Positions 9,935 through 21,549 are shown, numbered from the stretch's first letter. The stretch is DNA of 64,000 nucleotides from Escherichia coli (GCF_044324875.1 NZ_CP172185.1); one strand, 5' to 3'. Numbers and translations: made by a program. The notes: a model not told the origin generated them from the letters alone.

Positions 9935-10014
9935 ACTTAGATGTCCGTCTATATCAGATGGGCGTCTAAGTTACCAATTTTCGTCTGATGGCTACATACG
10001 GCGGTCAGTTTACG

Positions 10015-10290
10015 CTTACCATTGAGGCAATTGAAAAACCACTTTCTTCCCTGCCTTACTCACTTTCCCGTCACATCCTGGAACATCTGCGTAAACTCAC
10101 CAGTCACGAACCCGTGATTGGCATTATGGGGAAAAGCGGGGCCGGTAAATCCTCACTCTGTAATGCACTGTTTCAGGGGGAGGTCACCCCGGTCAGTGAT
10201 GTTCACGCCGGCACCCGGGAAGTGCGGCGCTTCCGTCTGAGTGGCCACGGTCACAGCATGATTATCACTGACCTGCCCGGGGTGGGCGAG
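10015..10290 (+). pseudogene. GTP-binding protein fragment (YeeP/YfjP/YkfA-like prophage GTPase), truncated at both ends by IS elements
   Basis: ORF 9988..10293 carries a P-loop (GKSGAGKSSLCNALF) and DLPGVGE; the ATG at 9988 lies inside the IS66 terminal repeat; 3' end cut by IS629 at 10291. Confidence 0.65.
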
Positions 10291-10332
10291 TGAACCGCCC
10301 CGGGTTTCCTGGAGAGTGTTTTATCTGTGAAC

Positions 10333-11223
10333 TCAGGCTGCCAGATCATCGTTTCCGATGGAAGCATAATAAGCTTTTTCTGCTTCTGCCGGTGGGATAT
10401 GGCCCAGCCTTTCCAGCAATCGTCGATTGTTATACCAGTCCACCCACGTGAGTGTGGCCAGCTCCACTTCTGTCCGGTTTTTCCAGCTCTTACGGTGTAT
10501 TACCTCCGCTTTGTAAAGGCCATTGATGCTCTCCGCCATCGCGTTGTCATACGAGTCACCAGTACTTCCTGTTGATGCCAGTAATCCGGCTTCCTTAAGC
10601 CGCTGTGTGTAGGCCAGCGATACATACTGAGAACCTTTATCACTGTGATGGACTGTGCCGGACGGTCGACGGGCCCATAACGCCTGCTCCAGAGCATCCA
10701 GCACGAATGTCGTTTCCATAGACGATGAGACCCGCCACCCCACGATGTATCCGGCAAACACATCAATGATGAACGCCACATAGACGACCCCCTGCCATGT
10801 GCTGACGTAAGTAAAATCAGCCACCCACAACTGGTCAGGACGTTCTGCCACAAACTGACGGTTTACGCGGTCGCCTGCGGCAACGGCTTTCCGGCTGACG
10901 GTAGTGCGGACCTTTTTACCCCGGAGAACACCGGCAAGTCCCATAACCGCCATGAGGCGCGCCACTGTACATCTGGCTACCCTGATTCCTTCCCGTAACA
11001 ACTGACGCCAGACTTTACGCACACCGTATACCTGATGATTCCCATCGTATACGCGCAGTATCTCTTTCTTCAGCCAGTCATCGCGCTGCGCACGGGCACT
11101 GCGTTTATCCGGATGATGTCGCTGTTGCTGACAGTGGTAATACGTTGACGGGGCAATATGTAGTTCACTGCATACCGGTCCGACCCCGTACAGCTTACGC
11201 AGCTTATCCAGCAGTGGCATCAC
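10333..11223 (-). CDS. IS629 transposase OrfB
   Basis: 296-aa ORF identical to copies 3 and 4. Confidence 0.85.
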
Positions 11224-11546
11224 TTTTTCCAGAGGCGGTCGAACTCCGCCTTCGCAAAATAAGCGGAAGCCTGGCGAAGGATATCGTTACTGCGGCGCAG
11301 TTCACGATTTTCACGTTCCAGCTCTTTCAGACGCTGACGTTCAGCGGTGGTGAGCCCGCCATCACCGCCTCCGGTATCCCGCTCATGCTGGCGTACCCAG
11401 ACACGCAGAGTCTCCGGTGTACAGCCAATCTTTGGGGCAATGGAACAAATTGCCGCCCACTGTGAGTCATATTCGCCCTGACTTTCCAGAACCATACGAA
11501 TCGCCCTCTGACGGACTTCGGGGGAAAAACGAGTATTTTTAGTCAT
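11220..11546 (-). CDS. IS629 transposase OrfA
   Basis: 108-aa ORF identical to other copies. Confidence 0.85.
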
Positions 11547-11600
11547 TCTGTTTACCTCTTTCTCAGGGAGTTTAGTCTCCAGGATTCCCGGGGCGGTTCA

Positions 11601-13386: not shown

Positions 13387-16300
13387 CTACCTACCCACCA
13401 TTCGTTGCATACTTTGCGTCCACGAGGCTTTAAATGCTGAATCTCCTGCGAACAACTTGTAGAGCTCAAGTTCATCTTTACGGCGTTGCAGCATGATTTC
13501 CTTGAGCATTTTTTCGAAGGCCAAATCTCGATTATGGGGATCTGGGTTGTTTTTGTATTTCGATTCGAAGTCAGGGTGATTGCGGATACTTTCAGCGATG
13601 TTCACGAACTTAACCTTTTGCTCTTCAGGTGTGGCACTCCAGCCCTGGAACCATCGCTCATTAAATGTGCGAATGATTTCATCCAGCGGGTCAGTTTCTT
13701 TTTCACCGCCATGCACCCCACGTGGGTTCGGATTTTGAGGATCAAGCTCCGCTTCTTGGTCACTAAGTTTAATGCTGTGGTTAAGCTTCACACGTTGCAA
13801 ACCGTATGAACTCAGATCGACAGAATCGAGAAGCTCATCAATAGCATCAGCATCGGGATCTTCCACTTTCAATTTCGGTATTAAAAACTTCAGGAACCAA
13901 AACAGTTTTTCCCAGCTGACCATTTCATAAGGCATGATAGAAGCCATCTGCCCATAGATTTTAACGAACTGTTTGGCTTTAATCTTAAAGTCCACTTTAG
14001 CTTCAGCTTCAAGATCTAGTTCATGGTCAAACCGCGCTGCGGCAATATCAATGATTGGACTGAGTGTTTGGGCGTCTTCATTCTTGAAATAACGCGTCAC
14101 AAAGTCTTCAACTTCATACCACTCGTACACACCGACATCGTCCATTTCATCTTTCAACTCGTGCAGTACGTTTATATCTGTAGCTTGGGACAATGACGTT
14201 GCTGTATAGAAAGGATCGAATGCTGATTGAATATCTTCAACCGAGTTGAAAAAATCCAGGATAAACAAGTCTTCTGTTTTCTTCCCTAGCTTAGGTGCAC
14301 TGCGATTGAGCCTAGATAGCGCCTGAACACACAAGACACTGGCGAGCTTCTTATCTACATACATGGCGCAAAGCTTAGGCTGGTCAAACCCAGTCAGATA
14401 CTTGTTAGCAACCACTAAAAGTCGATACTCATCGGTATCAAACATATCTTTGGTATCTGACTCGGCAAAACCATTAATATCTGCTTCGGTATATTCAATA
14501 CCATCAACTTCTTTGGTTCCTGAGAAAGCAATGGCAACTTTAAACGGGTTTCCTTGCTCCTCAAGTATTCGCCTTATCGCTTTGTAGTATCGAATGGCCG
14601 CCTCAATATTTTGAGTGACCACCATTCCTTTACCTTTACCTTTGAGCTTTTTCGTATTCACGACATGCGGAACAAAATGCTCCAGCATAATCTCTGCCTT
14701 GATATCAATTGTTTGCTGGCTTCGTTCTACATAAGCTCTGAGTTTTTTCTGCGCCTTTTTGGTATCAAACTCAGGGTTATCAGCAATTGATTTCTCAATC
14801 TCATAATAACTTTTGTACGTCGTATAATTTGCCAGCACATCCAAGATGAAGCCTTCTTCAATGGCTTGTTTCATCGAATACAAGTGAAACGGCTTGTAAG
14901 AGCCATCTTCTTGGCGTTGACCAAATTTCTCCAAAGTGCTGTTTTTTGGTGTCGCTGTAAATGCCAGGTACGACGCATTCCCGCGCATCTTACGCGATCT
15001 CATCGCCTGAAGGATTTTATCCTGAGCATCTTCTGCCTCTTCGACTTCAGACTTGCCCATCGCTCGGTTCATATTGTCATGCGCCGAACCAGACTGTGAG
15101 CTGTGTGCTTCATCGATGATCACTGCAAAGCGCTTGTCACTAAGATCGGCGATACCATCAATAATGAACGGGAATTTCTGAATCGTCGTTATAATAATCT
15201 TTTTGCCATTCTCCAGCGCCTGCTTAAGCTCAGAAGACTTATTCGCTGGGGCAATAATGTTCTTTACTTCAGAAAACTCTTTAATGTTATCCCGCAGCTG
15301 CTTGTCCAATAGGCGTCTATCGGTGACCACAATCACAGAGTCAAACAACGGCTGCTCCAAGCTTTTTCCGCCTGCCACATCAGACGAAGCAGGATAGGTT
15401 TCAATTAGCTGATAAGCTGCCCAGGTAATCGAGTTAGACTTACCTGAACCGGCTGAGTGTTGAATTAAGTAAGTCTGACCGACACCGTGCTGGGCGGCAT
15501 GGTCTACTAATTTTCTCACCACATCCAATTGATGGTATCGAGGAAAGAACAGGGTTCGCTTTGGTAATGGATCTTTGCTTGACCCATCCAGACGCACAAA
15601 ATGCTGAATAATATTCGCCAAGCTGTCTTTAGTGAATACTTCTTGCCATAGGTATGCCGTTTTATGGCCAGATGGATTCGGCGGGTTGCCTTGTCCAAGA
15701 TTGTGACCTTTATTGAACGGCAAGAAGAATGTACTGCTACCTGATAACTTGGTGGTCATATACACTTCGTCGGTATCGACCGCCATATGCACTAGGCAGC
15801 GGCCAAAGGTCAGCAATGGCTGAGTTGCATCCCGATCATCTCGATACTGCTTTTGGCCGTGATAACGTGCTGTTTGCCCGGTCCATGCGTTCTTCAACTC
15901 CAGCGTTATCAAGGGTATTCCGTTGATAAACAATACCATGTCGATTTCTTGTAGGGGATTTACCATGGAATAGCGCACTTGGCGAGTACAACTAAACACG
16001 TTATCTGCAAAGTTTTGCTTTACCTTCTCACTACTACTTGCCAAAGGGGCTGGATAGAGCAAATTGAAATGAGCATCGTCTACGCTTAGCCCTTTCTTAA
16101 GTAAATGAAGAATGCCATGCTTCTTAATCAGTCGGTCAAATCGTTCGAGTAACTTACGTTGCCAATCTGAGGGGTTGTTCTTTTGCAGTTTGGCCAACTC
16201 TACTTCTTGTGTCTTTTGCAGAAATTGCCAGAAAAAACGTTCATCAATGGCATATTGCATATTAAAGTCACTAGCAGCACCAATGAAGTATCCAGCACCC

Positions 16301-16404
16301 AGTGACTGCTGACTCAGTCCCTCTTTAAGCTCTTCAGCACTGATCCCAGCCAGACATTTCTCAATGGCCGACTCTAATGCTTGTTCATTGGTTTGACTGA
16401 CCAT
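13387..16404 (-). CDS. hsdR: Type I restriction enzyme R subunit (HsdR): N-terminal PD-(D/E)xK nuclease plus SF2 helicase motors
   Basis: 1005-aa ORF; nuclease motif D..ELK ([17 protein letters not shown]), helicase motif [11 protein letters not shown], motif [10 protein letters not shown], motif III FTATP; last gene of an hsdM-hsdS-X-hsdR array. Confidence 0.85.
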
Positions 16405-16418
16405 AATTGTAAATTCCC

Positions 16419-17582
16419 TTAATCAAAATTCTTCTGTTTCATTGCCTCAGCCGCTTTTTGCAGCGGTCCTTTTAAGGCTTTTTCTAACTTTGTCATCTGC
16501 TCTAAGTGCCACGCAACCGCTTGGGGCCAAGTCTCTTTGTTAAACCCGTCAGCTTTGGTCGAAAACTGGATACGGCAAGATTTCTTCTCATCCAGCCTCA
16601 TCCACTCAAGTTCTGCACCAAAAGTATGCTCAATGTCTTGTTTGGACTGACTCAACAAATCAAAAAGGTATTTATTCTCTTCGGTAACCCCACGGCTGAT
16701 CCAAAGCTCTACTCGAAGCTCTTTTTGCAGAAATATCAGGTTATACGGACATCCACTTAGCCCTGAGCCTGCTGATAACCAATGATCTTTGCTTGGGCTA
16801 ATGTTGTTATAGAGTTGGCAAGAGCTTTTCTGAAACGCCTCTAAGGCACGCTCCCAGTACTCGCGACGCACGGTATGGCGGTTTTTTAGTACCACTTCGG
16901 TGGTTTTTTCTTCCGCTTCCTTGGCATTAATGCCGATCATCAACTCTTTCGCTTCTGGCGTTGGAATGATCTGGTCAATATTAATCAGTAGCTGTTCACC
17001 CAGTGAATAAGGCGTGATTTTGAAGCAGGCAATGCTAATGCCTTGACCCAATAACCACAGCGCGGTGCTGGTCACTTCTTTGCGAAAGTTTGCCGCAACT
17101 AACATAATGCGCTGGCTGTTACCCAGGTTGAGCTTTAACTCATCGAGATCGGGCGCATCCAAAAACTCACATATTCTAGCAGAGGCACTTGCAGGGGTAT
17201 TAAACAAGTCAACCTCTCCTGTTACAGGCTCATAGCGGTCTAAGTACTGCTGGTAAATTTCAACGATTTGCGCTTTGGTTAAACTTGCGCAGTAGGAGGC
17301 ATATTTAAGCGCCTGCCACACCACATCGCGGCCACTATCGTCCAGCTTGTTTTCAATAATGACCAAGTTGCCATCTTTATCCAGTGCCAGTAAATCTAAG
17401 CGTTCACGGGTGTCATCAAAGCCATCGAACTCTTTTTGAATAATCAGCAGCTCTTCACCCAGTGCGGAAGGCTCGTGTGCCAACCATTCCTGAAGATTTT
17501 TGCGCTCAGTAAAGCCCAACTCACTGAATCTCTTCGTCTTAACCGGACTAATCCTGTTGGTCTGATAATTTACCGTGAACAT
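16419..17582 (-). CDS. Uncharacterised protein with a PD-(D/E)xK-like nuclease motif, embedded between hsdS and hsdR
   Basis: 387-aa ORF; N-terminal LALDKDGNLVIIENK fits D-x(n)-E-x-K; start codon 10 nt after the reconstructed hsdS stop and 15 nt before hsdR; no family assigned with confidence. Confidence 0.6.
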   Translation of the reverse strand: MFTVNYQTNRISPVKTKRFSELGFTERKNLQEWLAHEPSALGEELLIIQKEFDGFDDTRERLDLLALDKDGNLVIIENKLDDSGRDVVWQALKYASYCASLTKAQIVEIYQQYLDRYEPVTGEVDLFNTPASASARICEFLDAPDLDELKLNLGNSQRIMLVAANFRKEVTSTALWLLGQGISIACFKITPYSLGEQLLINIDQIIPTPEAKELMIGINAKEAEEKTTEVVLKNRHTVRREYWERALEAFQKSSCQLYNNISPSKDHWLSAGSGLSGCPYNLIFLQKELRVELWISRGVTEENKYLFDLLSQSKQDIEHTFGAELEWMRLDEKKSCRIQFSTKADGFNKETWPQAVAWHLEQMTKLEKALKGPLQKAAEAMKQKNFD

Positions 17583-17646
17583 ATTCGCTTCCTATTGCTC
17601 AACCTGAACCGCCCCGGGTTTCCTGGAGAGTGTTTTATCTGTGAAC

Positions 17647-18537
17647 TCAGGCTGCCAGATCATCGTTTCCGATGGAAGCATAATAAGCTTTTTCTGCTTC
17701 TGCCGGTGGGATATGGCCCAGCCTTTCCAGCAATCGTCGATTGTTATACCAGTCCACCCACGTGAGTGTGGCCAGCTCCACTTCTGTCCGGTTTTTCCAG
17801 CTCTTACGGTGTATTACCTCCGCTTTGTAAAGGCCATTGATGCTCTCCGCCATCGCGTTGTCATACGAGTCACCAGTACTTCCTGTTGATGCCAGTAATC
17901 CGGCTTCCTTAAGCCGCTGTGTGTAGGCCAGCGATACATACTGAGAACCTTTATCACTGTGATGGACTGTGCCGGACGGTCGACGGGCCCATAACGCCTG
18001 CTCCAGAGCATCCAGCACGAATGTCGTTTCCATAGACGATGAGACCCGCCACCCCACGATGTATCCGGCAAACACATCAATGATGAACGCCACATAGACG
18101 ACCCCCTGCCATGTGCTGACGTAAGTAAAATCAGCCACCCACAACTGGTCAGGACGTTCTGCCACAAACTGACGGTTTACGCGGTCGCCTGCGGCAACGG
18201 CTTTCCGGCTGACGGTAGTGCGGACCTTTTTACCCCGGAGAACACCGGCAAGTCCCATAACCGCCATGAGGCGCGCCACTGTACATCTGGCTACCCTGAT
18301 TCCTTCCCGTAACAACTGACGCCAGACTTTACGCACACCGTATACCTGATGATTCCCATCGTATACGCGCAGTATCTCTTTCTTCAGCCAGTCATCGCGC
18401 TGCGCACGGGCACTGCGTTTATCCGGATGATGTCGCTGTTGCTGACAGTGGTAATACGTTGACGGGGCAATATGTAGTTCACTGCATACCGGTCCGACCC
18501 CGTACAGCTTACGCAGCTTATCCAGCAGTGGCATCAC
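17647..18537 (-). CDS. IS629 transposase OrfB
   Basis: 296-aa ORF identical to copies 2 and 4. Confidence 0.85.
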
Positions 18538-18860
18538 TTTTTCCAGAGGCGGTCGAACTCCGCCTTCGCAAAATAAGCGGAAGCCTGGCGAAGGATATCG
18601 TTACTGCGGCGCAGTTCACGATTTTCACGTTCCAGCTCTTTCAGACGCTGACGTTCAGCGGTGGTGAGCCCGCCATCACCGCCTCCGGTATCCCGCTCAT
18701 GCTGGCGTACCCAGACACGCAGAGTCTCCGGTGTACAGCCAATCTTTGGGGCAATGGAACAAATTGCCGCCCACTGTGAGTCATATTCGCCCTGACTTTC
18801 CAGAACCATACGAATCGCCCTCTGACGGACTTCGGGGGAAAAACGAGTATTTTTAGTCAT
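18534..18860 (-). CDS. IS629 transposase OrfA
   Basis: 108-aa ORF. Confidence 0.85.
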
Positions 18861-18914
18861 TCTGTTTACCTCTTTCTCAGGGAGTTTAGTCTCCAGGATT
18901 CCCGGGGCGGTTCA

Positions 18915-19526
18915 TTGGGAAGTTGTGCCTCTAAAAAGGTTGGCGGTCTTGAGCCCTTCTGTGAAAGTTTCAAATAGAAAGTCCAAAGAATTAGTTACTT
19001 TCTTAGCGATAGAAAAGGTTTCAACAGATGGATTTATTGATCAAGATACATTAATGCCTATATGTGATGTGAGCCAAGGTTTTACGGTTTTTAACCGGGG
19101 GGATGTGATTGTTGCAAAAATTACACCTTGCTTTGAAAATGGGAAATCTGCTTGGCTTAACAATCTTCAAACTGAGTTTGGTTACGGCTCAACCGAGTTT
19201 CACGTTTTAAGATGTGGTCAGAGAATTATAGGAAGTTTTCTCTACTTAATCGTTAGTTCGCCCCTTTTTCTTAATGCCGGTGAGGCTATGATGACTGGTT
19301 CAGCTGGTCAGAAGCGCGTGCCTAGTTCATTTATCCAAAACTTTCCTACCGCAATTCCCGGAGTTGCAGAGCAAGAAAAAATAGTATCAAAGGTAAAAGA
19401 GCTGTTTTCACAGATTGATGTTGTTGTGGCTTCTACGGTAAATCAAATCGAAAAGCTCAAAGAATACAAAACCACCCTGATCAACAGCGCCGTGACAGGA
19501 AAAATAAAAATCACCCCAGAAATGGT
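18915..19526 (+). pseudogene. hsdS: hsdS 3' half (second target-recognition domain and distal conserved region), inverted relative to the rest of the operon
   Basis: ORF 18925..19575 (GTG start artefact) ...QEKIVSKVKELFSQIDVVVASTVNQIEKLKEYKTTLINSAVTGKI... typical HsdS C-terminal repeat; reads on + while hsdM, hsdS 5' half and hsdR read on -. Confidence 0.75.
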
Positions 19527-19580
19527 TGAACCGCCCCGGGAATCCTGGAGACTAAACTCCCTGAGAAAGAGGTAAACAGA

Positions 19581-19907
19581 ATGACTAAAAATACTCGTTT
19601 TTCCCCCGAAGTCCGTCAGAGGGCGATTCGTATGGTTCTGGAAAGTCAGGGCGAATATGACTCACAGTGGGCGGCAATTTGTTCCATTGCCCCAAAGATT
19701 GGCTGTACACCGGAGACTCTGCGTGTCTGGGTACGCCAGCATGAGCGGGATACCGGAGGCGGTGATGGCGGGCTCACCACCGCTGAACGTCAGCGTCTGA
19801 AAGAGCTGGAACGTGAAAATCGTGAACTGCGCCGCAGTAACGATATCCTTCGCCAGGCTTCCGCTTATTTTGCGAAGGCGGAGTTCGACCGCCTCTGGAA
19901 AAAGTGA
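19581..19907 (+). CDS. IS629 transposase OrfA
   Basis: 108-aa ORF identical to other copies. Confidence 0.85.
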
Positions 19908-20794
19908 TGCCACTGCTGGATAAGCTGCGTAAGCTGTACGGGGTCGGACCGGTATGCAGTGAACTACATATTGCCCCGTCAACGTATTACCACTGTCAGC
20001 AACAGCGACATCATCCGGATAAACGCAGTGCCCGTGCGCAGCGCGATGACTGGCTGAAGAAAGAGATACTGCGCGTATACGATGGGAATCATCAGGTATA
20101 CGGTGTGCGTAAAGTCTGGCGTCAGTTGTTACGGGAAGGAATCAGGGTAGCCAGATGTACAGTGGCGCGCCTCATGGCGGTTATGGGACTTGCCGGTGTT
20201 CTCCGGGGTAAAAAGGTCCGCACTACCGTCAGCCGGAAAGCCGTTGCCGCAGGCGACCGCGTAAACCGTCAGTTTGTGGCAGAACGTCCTGACCAGTTGT
20301 GGGTGGCTGATTTTACTTACGTCAGCACATGGCAGGGGGTCGTCTATGTGGCGTTCATCATTGATGTGTTTGCCGGATACATCGTGGGGTGGCGGGTCTC
20401 ATCGTCTATGGAAACGACATTCGTGCTGGATGCTCTGGAGCAGGCGTTATGGGCCCGTCGACCGTCCGGCACAGTCCATCACAGTGATAAAGGTTCTCAG
20501 TATGTATCGCTGGCCTACACACAGCGGCTTAAGGAAGCCGGATTACTGGCATCAACAGGAAGTACTGGTGACTCGTATGACAACGCGATGGCGGAGAGCA
20601 TCAATGGCCTTTACAAAGCGGAGGTAATACACCGTAAGAGCTGGAAAAACCGGACAGAAGTGGAGCTGGCCACACTCACGTGGGTGGACTGGTATAACAA
20701 TCGACGATTGCTGGAAAGGCTGGGCCATATCCCACCGGCAGAAGCAGAAAAAGCTTATTATGCTTCCATCGGAAACGATGATCTGGCAGCCTGA
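19904..20794 (+). CDS. IS629 transposase OrfB
   Basis: 296-aa ORF identical to copies 2 and 3. Confidence 0.85.
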
Positions 20795-20836
20795 GTTCAC
20801 AGATAAAACACTCTCCAGGAAACCCGGGGCGGTTCA

Positions 20837-21543
20837 CAATGCTCTGGAATATCTCCAATCCAATCCACACCGGAGTCTTTCATTGGCACATTGGGATCAA
20901 GCCCTTGGGTCACCGCCTGTTGGATGATGATCTGCTTATGTTCTTTTAACAGATTAATTTGCTTTTCTTTGATCGAAATCGCTTCGTCGATTAGAGCGAT
21001 TTTCTTGTCTAGGAAGTTGGCGATACGGGTTTGTTGCTCATGGGGAGGAACAAACGTCTTAAAACTCAGAAATGAATCTTTAGGAATTGTATTTCTCAGG
21101 CCACGATAAAGCGGTTTAAGCATCTTTTTTGCATCAAGGTTCATATAAAAATAGTATAAAAACCTATTATCAAAATTGTCATTTAGTTCAAAAACGGTAT
21201 ATGCACCAGTAATCATCCCATTAAATGGCGACAACCCAACAGTTCTGGGTGTTTCTTCCACGTCGAACAAGCAGAAAATGAAATCTCCACACTGCACTTC
21301 TTGATAAGTATCGAACTCTGCTGGGAACTTACCCTCTGGGTTTTCCATATCACGCTTAATCACACCTCTGAGAGTAAGCGATAGCAAATCATATTCGCTT
21401 GAGCGTTTTCCAACCTGTTTTTTCTTCAAGCGAAAGATGTGCTTATTAGCTAATAAGCTCCAAGACGCAGGAATATCCCCTAGCCATTCAACACCTGAAT
21501 CCTTATAAACCTCATATTTCGGCATTTCAGAAATCTTCATCAT
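20837..21543 (-). pseudogene. hsdS: hsdS 5' half (first target-recognition domain and central conserved region), cut by IS629
   Basis: ORF 20797..21543; ...TRIANFLDKKIALIDEAISIKEKQINLLKEHKQIIIQQAVTQGLD...DIPEH then IS-derived read-through; start overlaps hsdM stop. Confidence 0.8.
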
Positions 21544-21549
21544 AACGAC

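Follow-up and report, generated by a model that had tools for sequence, protein, structure and literature searches.

A putative modification-dependent DNA endonuclease of the MdgA/PDC-S11 defence family nested in an IS-disrupted type I restriction-modification operon of Escherichia coli

Results

An intact nuclease gene lies between hsdS and hsdR

The window analysed here, a stretch of 64,000 nt of Escherichia coli DNA, contains an intact gene for a 387-aa protein next to hsdR. On the basis of its family, its domains and its genetic context, we consider it probable (about 0.72) that this gene encodes an autonomous, type IV-like, modification-dependent defence DNA endonuclease of the MdgA/PDC-S11 family, which is a passenger in a type I restriction-modification (R-M) operon. 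The family has already been catalogued by PADLOC and one of its members has been characterised; the protein itself is not novel. The features at the gene and its two borders are the following:

13387..16404, minus strand: hsdR, 1005 aa, frame intact, directly 3' of the nuclease gene on the same strand; annotated in relatives as type I restriction subunit R
16419..17582, minus strand: nuclease gene (MdgA-like / PDC-S11), 387 aa, ATG start, intact (from the ORF list, DNA identity and PADLOC)
17583..17604, minus strand: remnant 5' of the nuclease ATG, 22 nt, made up of the last hsdS codons, the TAG stop, AGGAAG and the 9-nt spacer

An earlier note, written from the DNA alone, had proposed a 387-aa ORF at 16419-17582. 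This ORF is real and intact: its DNA shows 100% identity to annotated genes in several complete E. coli genomes, and its product is identical to RefSeq WP_001349632.1, which carries the label 'DUF4268 domain-containing protein'. A chance ORF is ruled out by the deep conserved family to which the product belongs and by its confident fold (see below). The gene is carried by 58 of 5426 complete E. coli genomes, on plasmids in 20 of the 58, and E. coli copies were always found within a mobile type I module or on plasmids.

In the intact loci of E. coli DLI.6n (L001), MS 119-7 (L002) and GF4 (L025), the gene order is hsdM-hsdS-ORF-hsdR, so that the position between hsdS and hsdR, as proposed in the earlier note, was confirmed. 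The distances given there, 10 nt from hsdS and 15 nt to hsdR, were also correct. The TAG stop of hsdS (17594-17592) and the nuclease ATG are 9 nt apart, and the spacer between the nuclease gene and hsdR is 14 nt long (GGGAATTTACAATT), with hsdR beginning at the 15th nucleotide. Only the last 13 nt of hsdS survive at this border in the window, and the stop codon overlaps the ribosome-binding site AGGAAG. The native 22 nt kept 5' of the nuclease ATG (GGTTGAGCAATAGGAAGCGAAT) retain this ribosome-binding site. The terminal repeat of an insertion sequence (IS) begins at 17605, which puts it exactly 22 nt upstream of the start codon, in agreement with the claim that IS629 lies 22 bp upstream of the start.

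A RecB-like nuclease core is combined with a DUF4268 domain

The following parts of the nuclease gene were assigned to domains and active-site residues of its product:

17289..17507, minus strand: N-terminal NucS/RecB-like PD-(D/E)xK nuclease core, residues 26-98
17505-17507, 17394-17396 and 17352-17354, minus strand: key codons of the nuclease core for E26, D63 and E77, respectively
17346-17348, 17313-17315 and 17301-17303, minus strand: key codons of the nuclease core for K79, Q90 and Y94, respectively
16467..16871, minus strand: DUF4268 domain at the C-terminus (residues 238-372), which may serve as a sensor or recognise the substrate

Pfam detected DUF4268 at residues 238-372 (E 2e-39); the part of the protein outside the nuclease motif, which had been described as unrecognised, does therefore contain a catalogued domain. 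In the N-terminal part, weak Pfam matches to NucS_C and PDDEXK_4 were obtained at residues 29-97, together with a weak NCBIfam match to NucS (E 2e-5). The protein was modelled with AlphaFold2 at a mean pLDDT of 95.1, and Foldseek ranked NucS/EndoMS first for this model, in which the alpha-beta-beta-beta-alpha-beta core of RecB-like PD-(D/E)xK nucleases is found with its D, ExK and QxxxY elements. Structure prediction and fold comparison, proposed in the earlier note as a check, thus revealed a nuclease-like active site. By sequence, a phmmer search of the PDB with the single nuclease protein returned nothing, and NucS was reached by the family profile alone.

The active site was examined by aligning the full-length sequences of 79 diverse homologues. 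All of them carry E26, D63, K79 and Y94, and E51, D68, E77 and Q90 are conserved in at least 90% of the sequences. The profile built from the 79 homologues matches Pyrococcus abyssi NucS in such a way that D63, E77, K79, Q90 and Y94 align with D160, E174, K176, Q187 and Y191, which are the RecB-type site residues of that enzyme (PMC7343888). The earlier note had recognised a D-x(n)-E-x-K motif (LALDKDGNLVIIENK, residues 65-79) and had assumed a PD-(D/E)xK fold. Fold and site hold and can now be specified as NucS/RecB-like, whereas the aspartate has to be reassigned, as the alignment with NucS predicts the catalytic residue to be D63 and not D68 or D70.

The modelled fold of DUF4268 resembles type III secretion system (T3SS) chaperones and YbjN proteins, which are not known to read DNA modifications. 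That this domain selects the substrate or acts as a sensor is put forward here as a conjecture.

The protein probably belongs to the MdgA family

The nuclease was matched by PADLOC to PDC-S11, a single-gene class of phage defence candidates in PADLOC-DB v2. The match to model PDLC04913 (E 4.5e-182) spans residues 1-383 of 387 and model positions 1-373 of 375, and seven further PDC-S11 models match the protein with E values from 8e-67 to 2e-30. The window protein is thus matched over its full length by a class that is a computational candidate without assigned mechanism or operon context. When clustered at 50% identity, the family counts 5540 clusters at E<=1e-3, of which 478 reach E<=1e-30.

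It has been reported that MdgA (modification defense gene A), isolated by functional metagenomic selection from an insert of a human faecal metagenome, protects against T4, though not against unmodified T4-GT7, and also against Mu (Rodriguez-Rodriguez et al., Cell Host Microbe 2025, PMC12366544; bioRxiv 10.1101/2025.02.28.640651). The purified protein degrades T4 DNA far better than T4-GT7 DNA, and an E77A exchange abolishes both nuclease activity and defence; moreover, MdgA by itself is enough to defend E. coli, and it cleaves DNA in vitro with no partner protein (PMC12366544; bioRxiv 10.1101/2025.02.28.640651). In the supplementary table, the mdgA insert T4-29 (F01A_T4_pc4_2) is among four inserts with a PDC-S11 match, and mdgA is described as a single ORF with a NucS-like nuclease and a DUF4268 domain (bioRxiv 10.1101/2025.02.28.640651).

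The window protein has this same architecture, with an N-terminal NucS-like nuclease and a C-terminal DUF4268 domain in the range of about 370-400 aa. The primer used for the E77A exchange in MdgA (GTTATTGTTGCAAACAAGCTAGATGAT) encodes VIV(A)NKLDD, and the window protein reads V74-I-I-E77-N-K-L-D-D82 with matching numbering; the glutamate of the catalytic ExK is thus present in VIIE77NKLDD. Both proteins therefore share the single ORF, the two domains, the PDC-S11 class and Glu77 in the motif (V/I)I(V/I)ENKLDD. PADLOC family, domain architecture and the primer-encoded motif with its identical numbering are three independent features, which together make the window protein a probable member of the MdgA family.

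The two genes differ in their surroundings and in their beginnings. mdgA adjoins a short-chain dehydrogenase gene and is not inside a type I operon, and the inferred N-terminus of MdgA is MILNQSI, compared to MFTVNYQ in the window protein. An exact scan of metagenome contigs with the 27-mer of the mutagenesis primer and with the inferred start region of MdgA gave no match. With a degenerate scan for VIVENKLDD in GTDB genomes, eight family loci were obtained in which the motif glutamate is residue 77 counted from the apparent start methionine; the N-terminus of MdgA is absent from all eight. The specificity of the nuclease may differ between members of the family.

The interpretation as a defence gene is supported by these results, since the protein is a full-length PDC-S11 member and the family member MdgA has been shown experimentally to be a defence nuclease. 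By analogy with MdgA, the activity of this allele is most likely the degradation of hypermodified phage DNA, and we infer its dependence on modification from this relationship.

hsdS has been split by two IS copies

Upstream of the remnant described above, the operon continues as follows:

17605..18914, minus strand: IS629-type IS3-family element, 1310 bp, transposase genes co-oriented with the nuclease gene; bounds from the alignment of the two copies
18915..19526, plus strand: middle and 3' piece of hsdS, 612 bp, inverted with respect to the rest of the operon; edges from the IS bounds
19527..20836, plus strand: second IS629-type copy, identical 1310 bp, in opposite orientation to the first
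20837..21543, minus strand: 5' part of hsdS, truncated, starting with MMKISEMPKY like the annotated 441-aa HsdS WP_000975823.1
21550..23973, minus strand: hsdM, 807 aa, frame intact, with Pfam HsdM_N and N6_Mtase

The IS elements of the window are annotated as 'IS3 family transposase' in relatives; from their length and ends, we take them to be IS629. The inverted hsdS piece matches positions 13181-13797 of L001 in reverse orientation with 99.8% identity. Each 3-bp target duplication, GGT as well as CAA, is split between the two IS copies, and this exchange indicates that two independent insertions in opposite orientation were followed by recombination between the copies. As a consequence, hsdS lies in three pieces, while the frames of hsdM and hsdR are intact. 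HsdS is required for both methylation and restriction by type I systems, so that the break-up of its gene has probably inactivated the type I system of this strain, with the loss of both activities. The IS events look recent, because three copies of the element are identical and because hsdS is intact in GF4, the nearest genome, with which the left and right flanks of the window share 100% and 99.9% identity, respectively.

Several other observations were made around the operon. Further copies of the same IS are located at 646-1955, 10291-11600 and 26959-27753, one of them 100% identical, one 99.7% identical and one a partial copy of 795 bp. Elements of the IS66 (ISEc23), IS30 and IS3 families form a patchwork around the R-M module that takes up the whole left third of the window; it includes a GTPase gene fragment (9988-10293), which ends just before the IS copy at 10291-11600. 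The GC content of the R-M module (13387-23973) is 40-46% as compared to 50% for the window, which fits horizontal acquisition. HsdM is unusually long with its 807 aa; HsdM_N and N6_Mtase stop near residue 486, and for the C-terminal extension of about 320 aa no significant Pfam match was found. Just upstream of hsdM, at about 24780-26300 in the window, the annotation of relatives shows a group II intron reverse transcriptase (ltrA) that lies within an IS3 remnant. The longest ORF of the window at this place has 364 aa (25208-26302) versus about 502 aa in GF4, and ltrA may thus be interrupted in this strain.

The nuclease gene could be transcribed from the adjacent IS

The insertion 22 nt upstream of the start may have cut the nuclease gene off from the operon promoter, and the gene could be a silent relic that has no current function in this strain despite its intact ORF. 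We regard this as a possibility to be taken seriously, although the odds are somewhat against it. In its favour, hsdS is in three pieces and two IS copies plus an inverted segment stand between hsdM and the nuclease gene, and a consensus scan for sigma-70-like promoters at the junction of IS and nuclease gene found none. However, the nuclease ORF is 100% identical to copies that look functional and shows no decay, and the recent appearance of the IS events, with identical IS copies and an intact hsdS in GF4, also speaks against a silent relic. Moreover, the ribosome-binding site is kept and the adjacent IS points in the same direction as the nuclease gene, so that transcription of the transposase genes could read through into it. 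Transcription would now start either from this co-oriented IS or from a promoter that the scan did not recognise. Whether the gene is silent here bears on its expression state and is a matter separate from its identity.

Relatives recur in and around type I operons and also occur apart from them

Proteins 97-99% identical to the nuclease were found in Vibrio, Proteus, Providencia, Morganella, Salmonella, Alteromonas, Marinomonas, Cellvibrio and others. In Alteromonas and in marine metagenomes, the same four-gene module is present with the same spacers of 9 nt and 14 nt. In the module of Alteromonas CP013930 and marine sequences (L026-L030), HsdM is 98% and HsdR 94% identical to the window proteins, and HsdS only 40%. 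This 40%, as against 94-98% for the other three proteins, shows that the specificity has been swapped on a conserved scaffold. The L026-L030 module lies between a BrxR-type WYL regulator and an SMODS/SAVED-HNH CBASS operon, beside umuDC-like genes, a setting which looks like a defence island of the ICE type. The four-gene module is mobile, being found in ICE-like islands, plasmids and E. coli islands. In phage genomes, only three partial and distant matches to the nuclease were obtained, and, given their small number and quality, it is not a typical phage gene.

Plasmid pM160133_p3 (L003) and about 30 similar E. coli plasmids carry the module about 6.6 kb from the start of the record. These plasmids are roughly 105-120 kb in size and typed as 'non-mobilizable', and the neighbours of the module include a recombinase and a 5'-3' exonuclease; they may be phage-plasmids.

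The earlier note had suggested a survey of gene neighbourhoods, which was done with 11 representatives of clusters at 50% identity. Of the 11 sampled clusters, 4 have their representative within or adjacent to a type I operon. Two of these four are located between hsdS and hsdR: P0122 (57% identical), in a type I system that shares only 24% identity with the window proteins in HsdR and HsdM, and P0123 (52%), which is accompanied by an AAA_15/21 ATPase gene and belongs to a related system (HsdR 74% identical). One, P0128, is found 14 nt upstream of an hsdM, and another, P0127, 1.2 kb downstream of hsdR, adjoining another helicase-methylase cluster. Three (P0126, P0129 and P0141) are beside other R-M, helicase or WYL-regulator genes, and for the remaining four, among them P0121, P0124 and P0155, no defence gene is seen nearby or the contig is short. 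At the eight VIVENKLDD loci, no homologues of the window Hsd proteins were found in the available flanks, some of which are short. Likewise, phmmer searches with HsdR, HsdM and HsdS of the window against nine family loci detected no type I neighbours, which argues against an obligatory linkage. Taken as a pattern across these genomes, the neighbourhoods point to an autonomous defence gene that would have been captured repeatedly by type I operons, and not to a type I subunit.

The slot between hsdS and hsdR also houses other small genes in related type I operons (L013 5355-5993; L017 2721-4719; L032 1039-1686). Two of the products, of 212 aa and 215 aa, are without Pfam matches; in another case, an AAA_15/AAA_21 ATPase precedes a Cys-rich protein of 216 aa, and the two may be an OLD/RloB-like pair.

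The recurrence near type I genes could also mean that the nuclease serves the type I enzyme as a functional accessory. It might bind HsdR or HsdM and, following the logic of PrrC, fire when phage anti-restriction proteins block the complex, or it might instead process DNA translocated by HsdR. The gene does occupy the operon slot of prrC, the 9-nt and 14-nt spacers are conserved from E. coli to Alteromonas, and the 4 of 11 sampled clusters in or beside type I operons fit such a role. Nevertheless, we consider it unlikely, since MdgA alone suffices for defence and cuts DNA without partners, most sampled family members lack type I neighbours, and host type I systems that are only 24% identical speak against a specific protein-protein interface. 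Furthermore, no ATPase or anticodon-nuclease module is present in the nuclease.

A functional coupling of a different kind, in which the type I complex would hold the nuclease inactive or load it onto DNA with DUF4268 as a protein-protein or effector-binding module, is likewise unlikely. It draws on the recurrence of the nuclease between hsdS and hsdR in two type I families with only 24% identity to each other, as well as directly upstream of hsdM and just downstream of hsdR; DUF4268, with its T3SS-chaperone-like fold, would then not read modified bases. If it were true, the activity or the toxicity of the nuclease would change once HsdS is lost, as has happened in this strain. An autonomous nuclease of the MdgA family, which would act independently of HsdMSR, remains our preferred reading.

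Comparison with known systems

The closest architectural precedent is TgvAB of the Vibrio cholerae island VPI-2, a GmrSD-like type IV system in the hsdS-hsdR slot. TgvAB works independently of the HsdR nuclease and is found much more often outside type I operons than within them. Both loci would thus place a type IV, that is, modification-dependent, function between hsdS and hsdR, which for the window protein is proposed by analogy. They differ in their proteins, as TgvAB consists of two, with a DUF262 NTPase and a DUF1524 His-Me finger, whereas the window protein is a single one with PD-(D/E)xK and DUF4268 and without NTPase. A GmrSD/TgvAB-type enzyme was rejected, both DUF262 (DGQQR NTPase) and DUF1524 (His-Me finger) being absent from the Pfam scan. 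DUF4268 also occurs as a fusion with GmrSD type IV enzymes, which fits a role connected with type IV restriction; it is the one domain that some GmrSD proteins have in common with the window protein.

PrrC and RloC are ABC-ATPase-like tRNA anticodon nucleases encoded in type I loci and held in check by the type I enzyme. The earlier note had named them as comparators, which is fitting with respect to the operon slot and the logic of a passenger in a defence island. The likeness does not extend to the protein: there is no ATPase or anticodon-nuclease module, the matches are restricted to PDC-S, NucS, PDDEXK-type and DUF4268 families, and the family acts on DNA. A PrrC/RloC-type anticodon nuclease was discarded because no ATPase or anticodon-nuclease family was found with Pfam, NCBIfam or PADLOC and the model has no P-loop domain. 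A core type I subunit was also discarded, as no Hsd family matched in NCBIfam or Pfam and most sampled homologues are without type I neighbours.

With NucS/EndoMS (P. abyssi 2vld, Thermococcus kodakarensis 5gke), the window protein shares the RecB-like fold and the set E...D...ExK...QxxxY. NucS is the closest solved structure, with catalytic residues in common, and one UniRef entry calls a 98%-identical protein 'Endonuclease NucS'; a housekeeping endonuclease for mismatched or branched DNA of this type is nevertheless very improbable, because the scores, 23.7 bits for NF003270 (cut-off 216) and 15.1 bits for NF002876 (cut-off 252), are about ten times too low, only the nuclease core aligns (residues 25-101 with profile positions 127-201), DUF4268 stands in place of the unmatched N-terminal mismatch/ssDNA-binding domain of NucS, and the gene is sporadic and mobile, with low GC, in 58 of 5426 E. 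coli genomes on the type I module or plasmids. A NucS mismatch repair enzyme was accordingly rejected on the curated NCBIfam cut-offs and the missing N-terminal domain.

Discussion

The core of the earlier interpretation, a PD-(D/E)xK accessory defence gene in the hsdS-hsdR slot, is supported by fold, PDC-S11 class, relationship to MdgA and genetic context. In the mechanism that we propose, the N-terminal PD-(D/E)xK domain would cut DNA by means of E26, D63, E77-x-K79 and Q90-x3-Y94, and a central alpha/beta region with a long helix would link it to DUF4268, which might select the substrate. Hypermodified phage DNA, for example the glucosyl-hydroxymethylcytosine DNA of T4 or the momylated adenine DNA of Mu, would be degraded, and host DNA would be spared. 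The nuclease would act alone, as a passenger in an hsdM-hsdS-X-hsdR operon, and would cover phages that escape type I restriction through base modification.

The locus holds nothing conceptually new, and its context has a clear precedent. What the analysis provides is a likely function for a gene that RefSeq labels only as 'DUF4268 domain-containing protein' and that mobile type I R-M modules carry nearly unchanged across many Gammaproteobacteria. After TgvAB, it would be the second case in which a type I operon harbours a type IV-like nuclease. Such a nested nuclease would widen the reach of one locus to both unmodified and hypermodified phage DNA. In the strain studied here, the locus suggests a defence island in which IS activity has disabled the type I arm but may have spared the nested nuclease.
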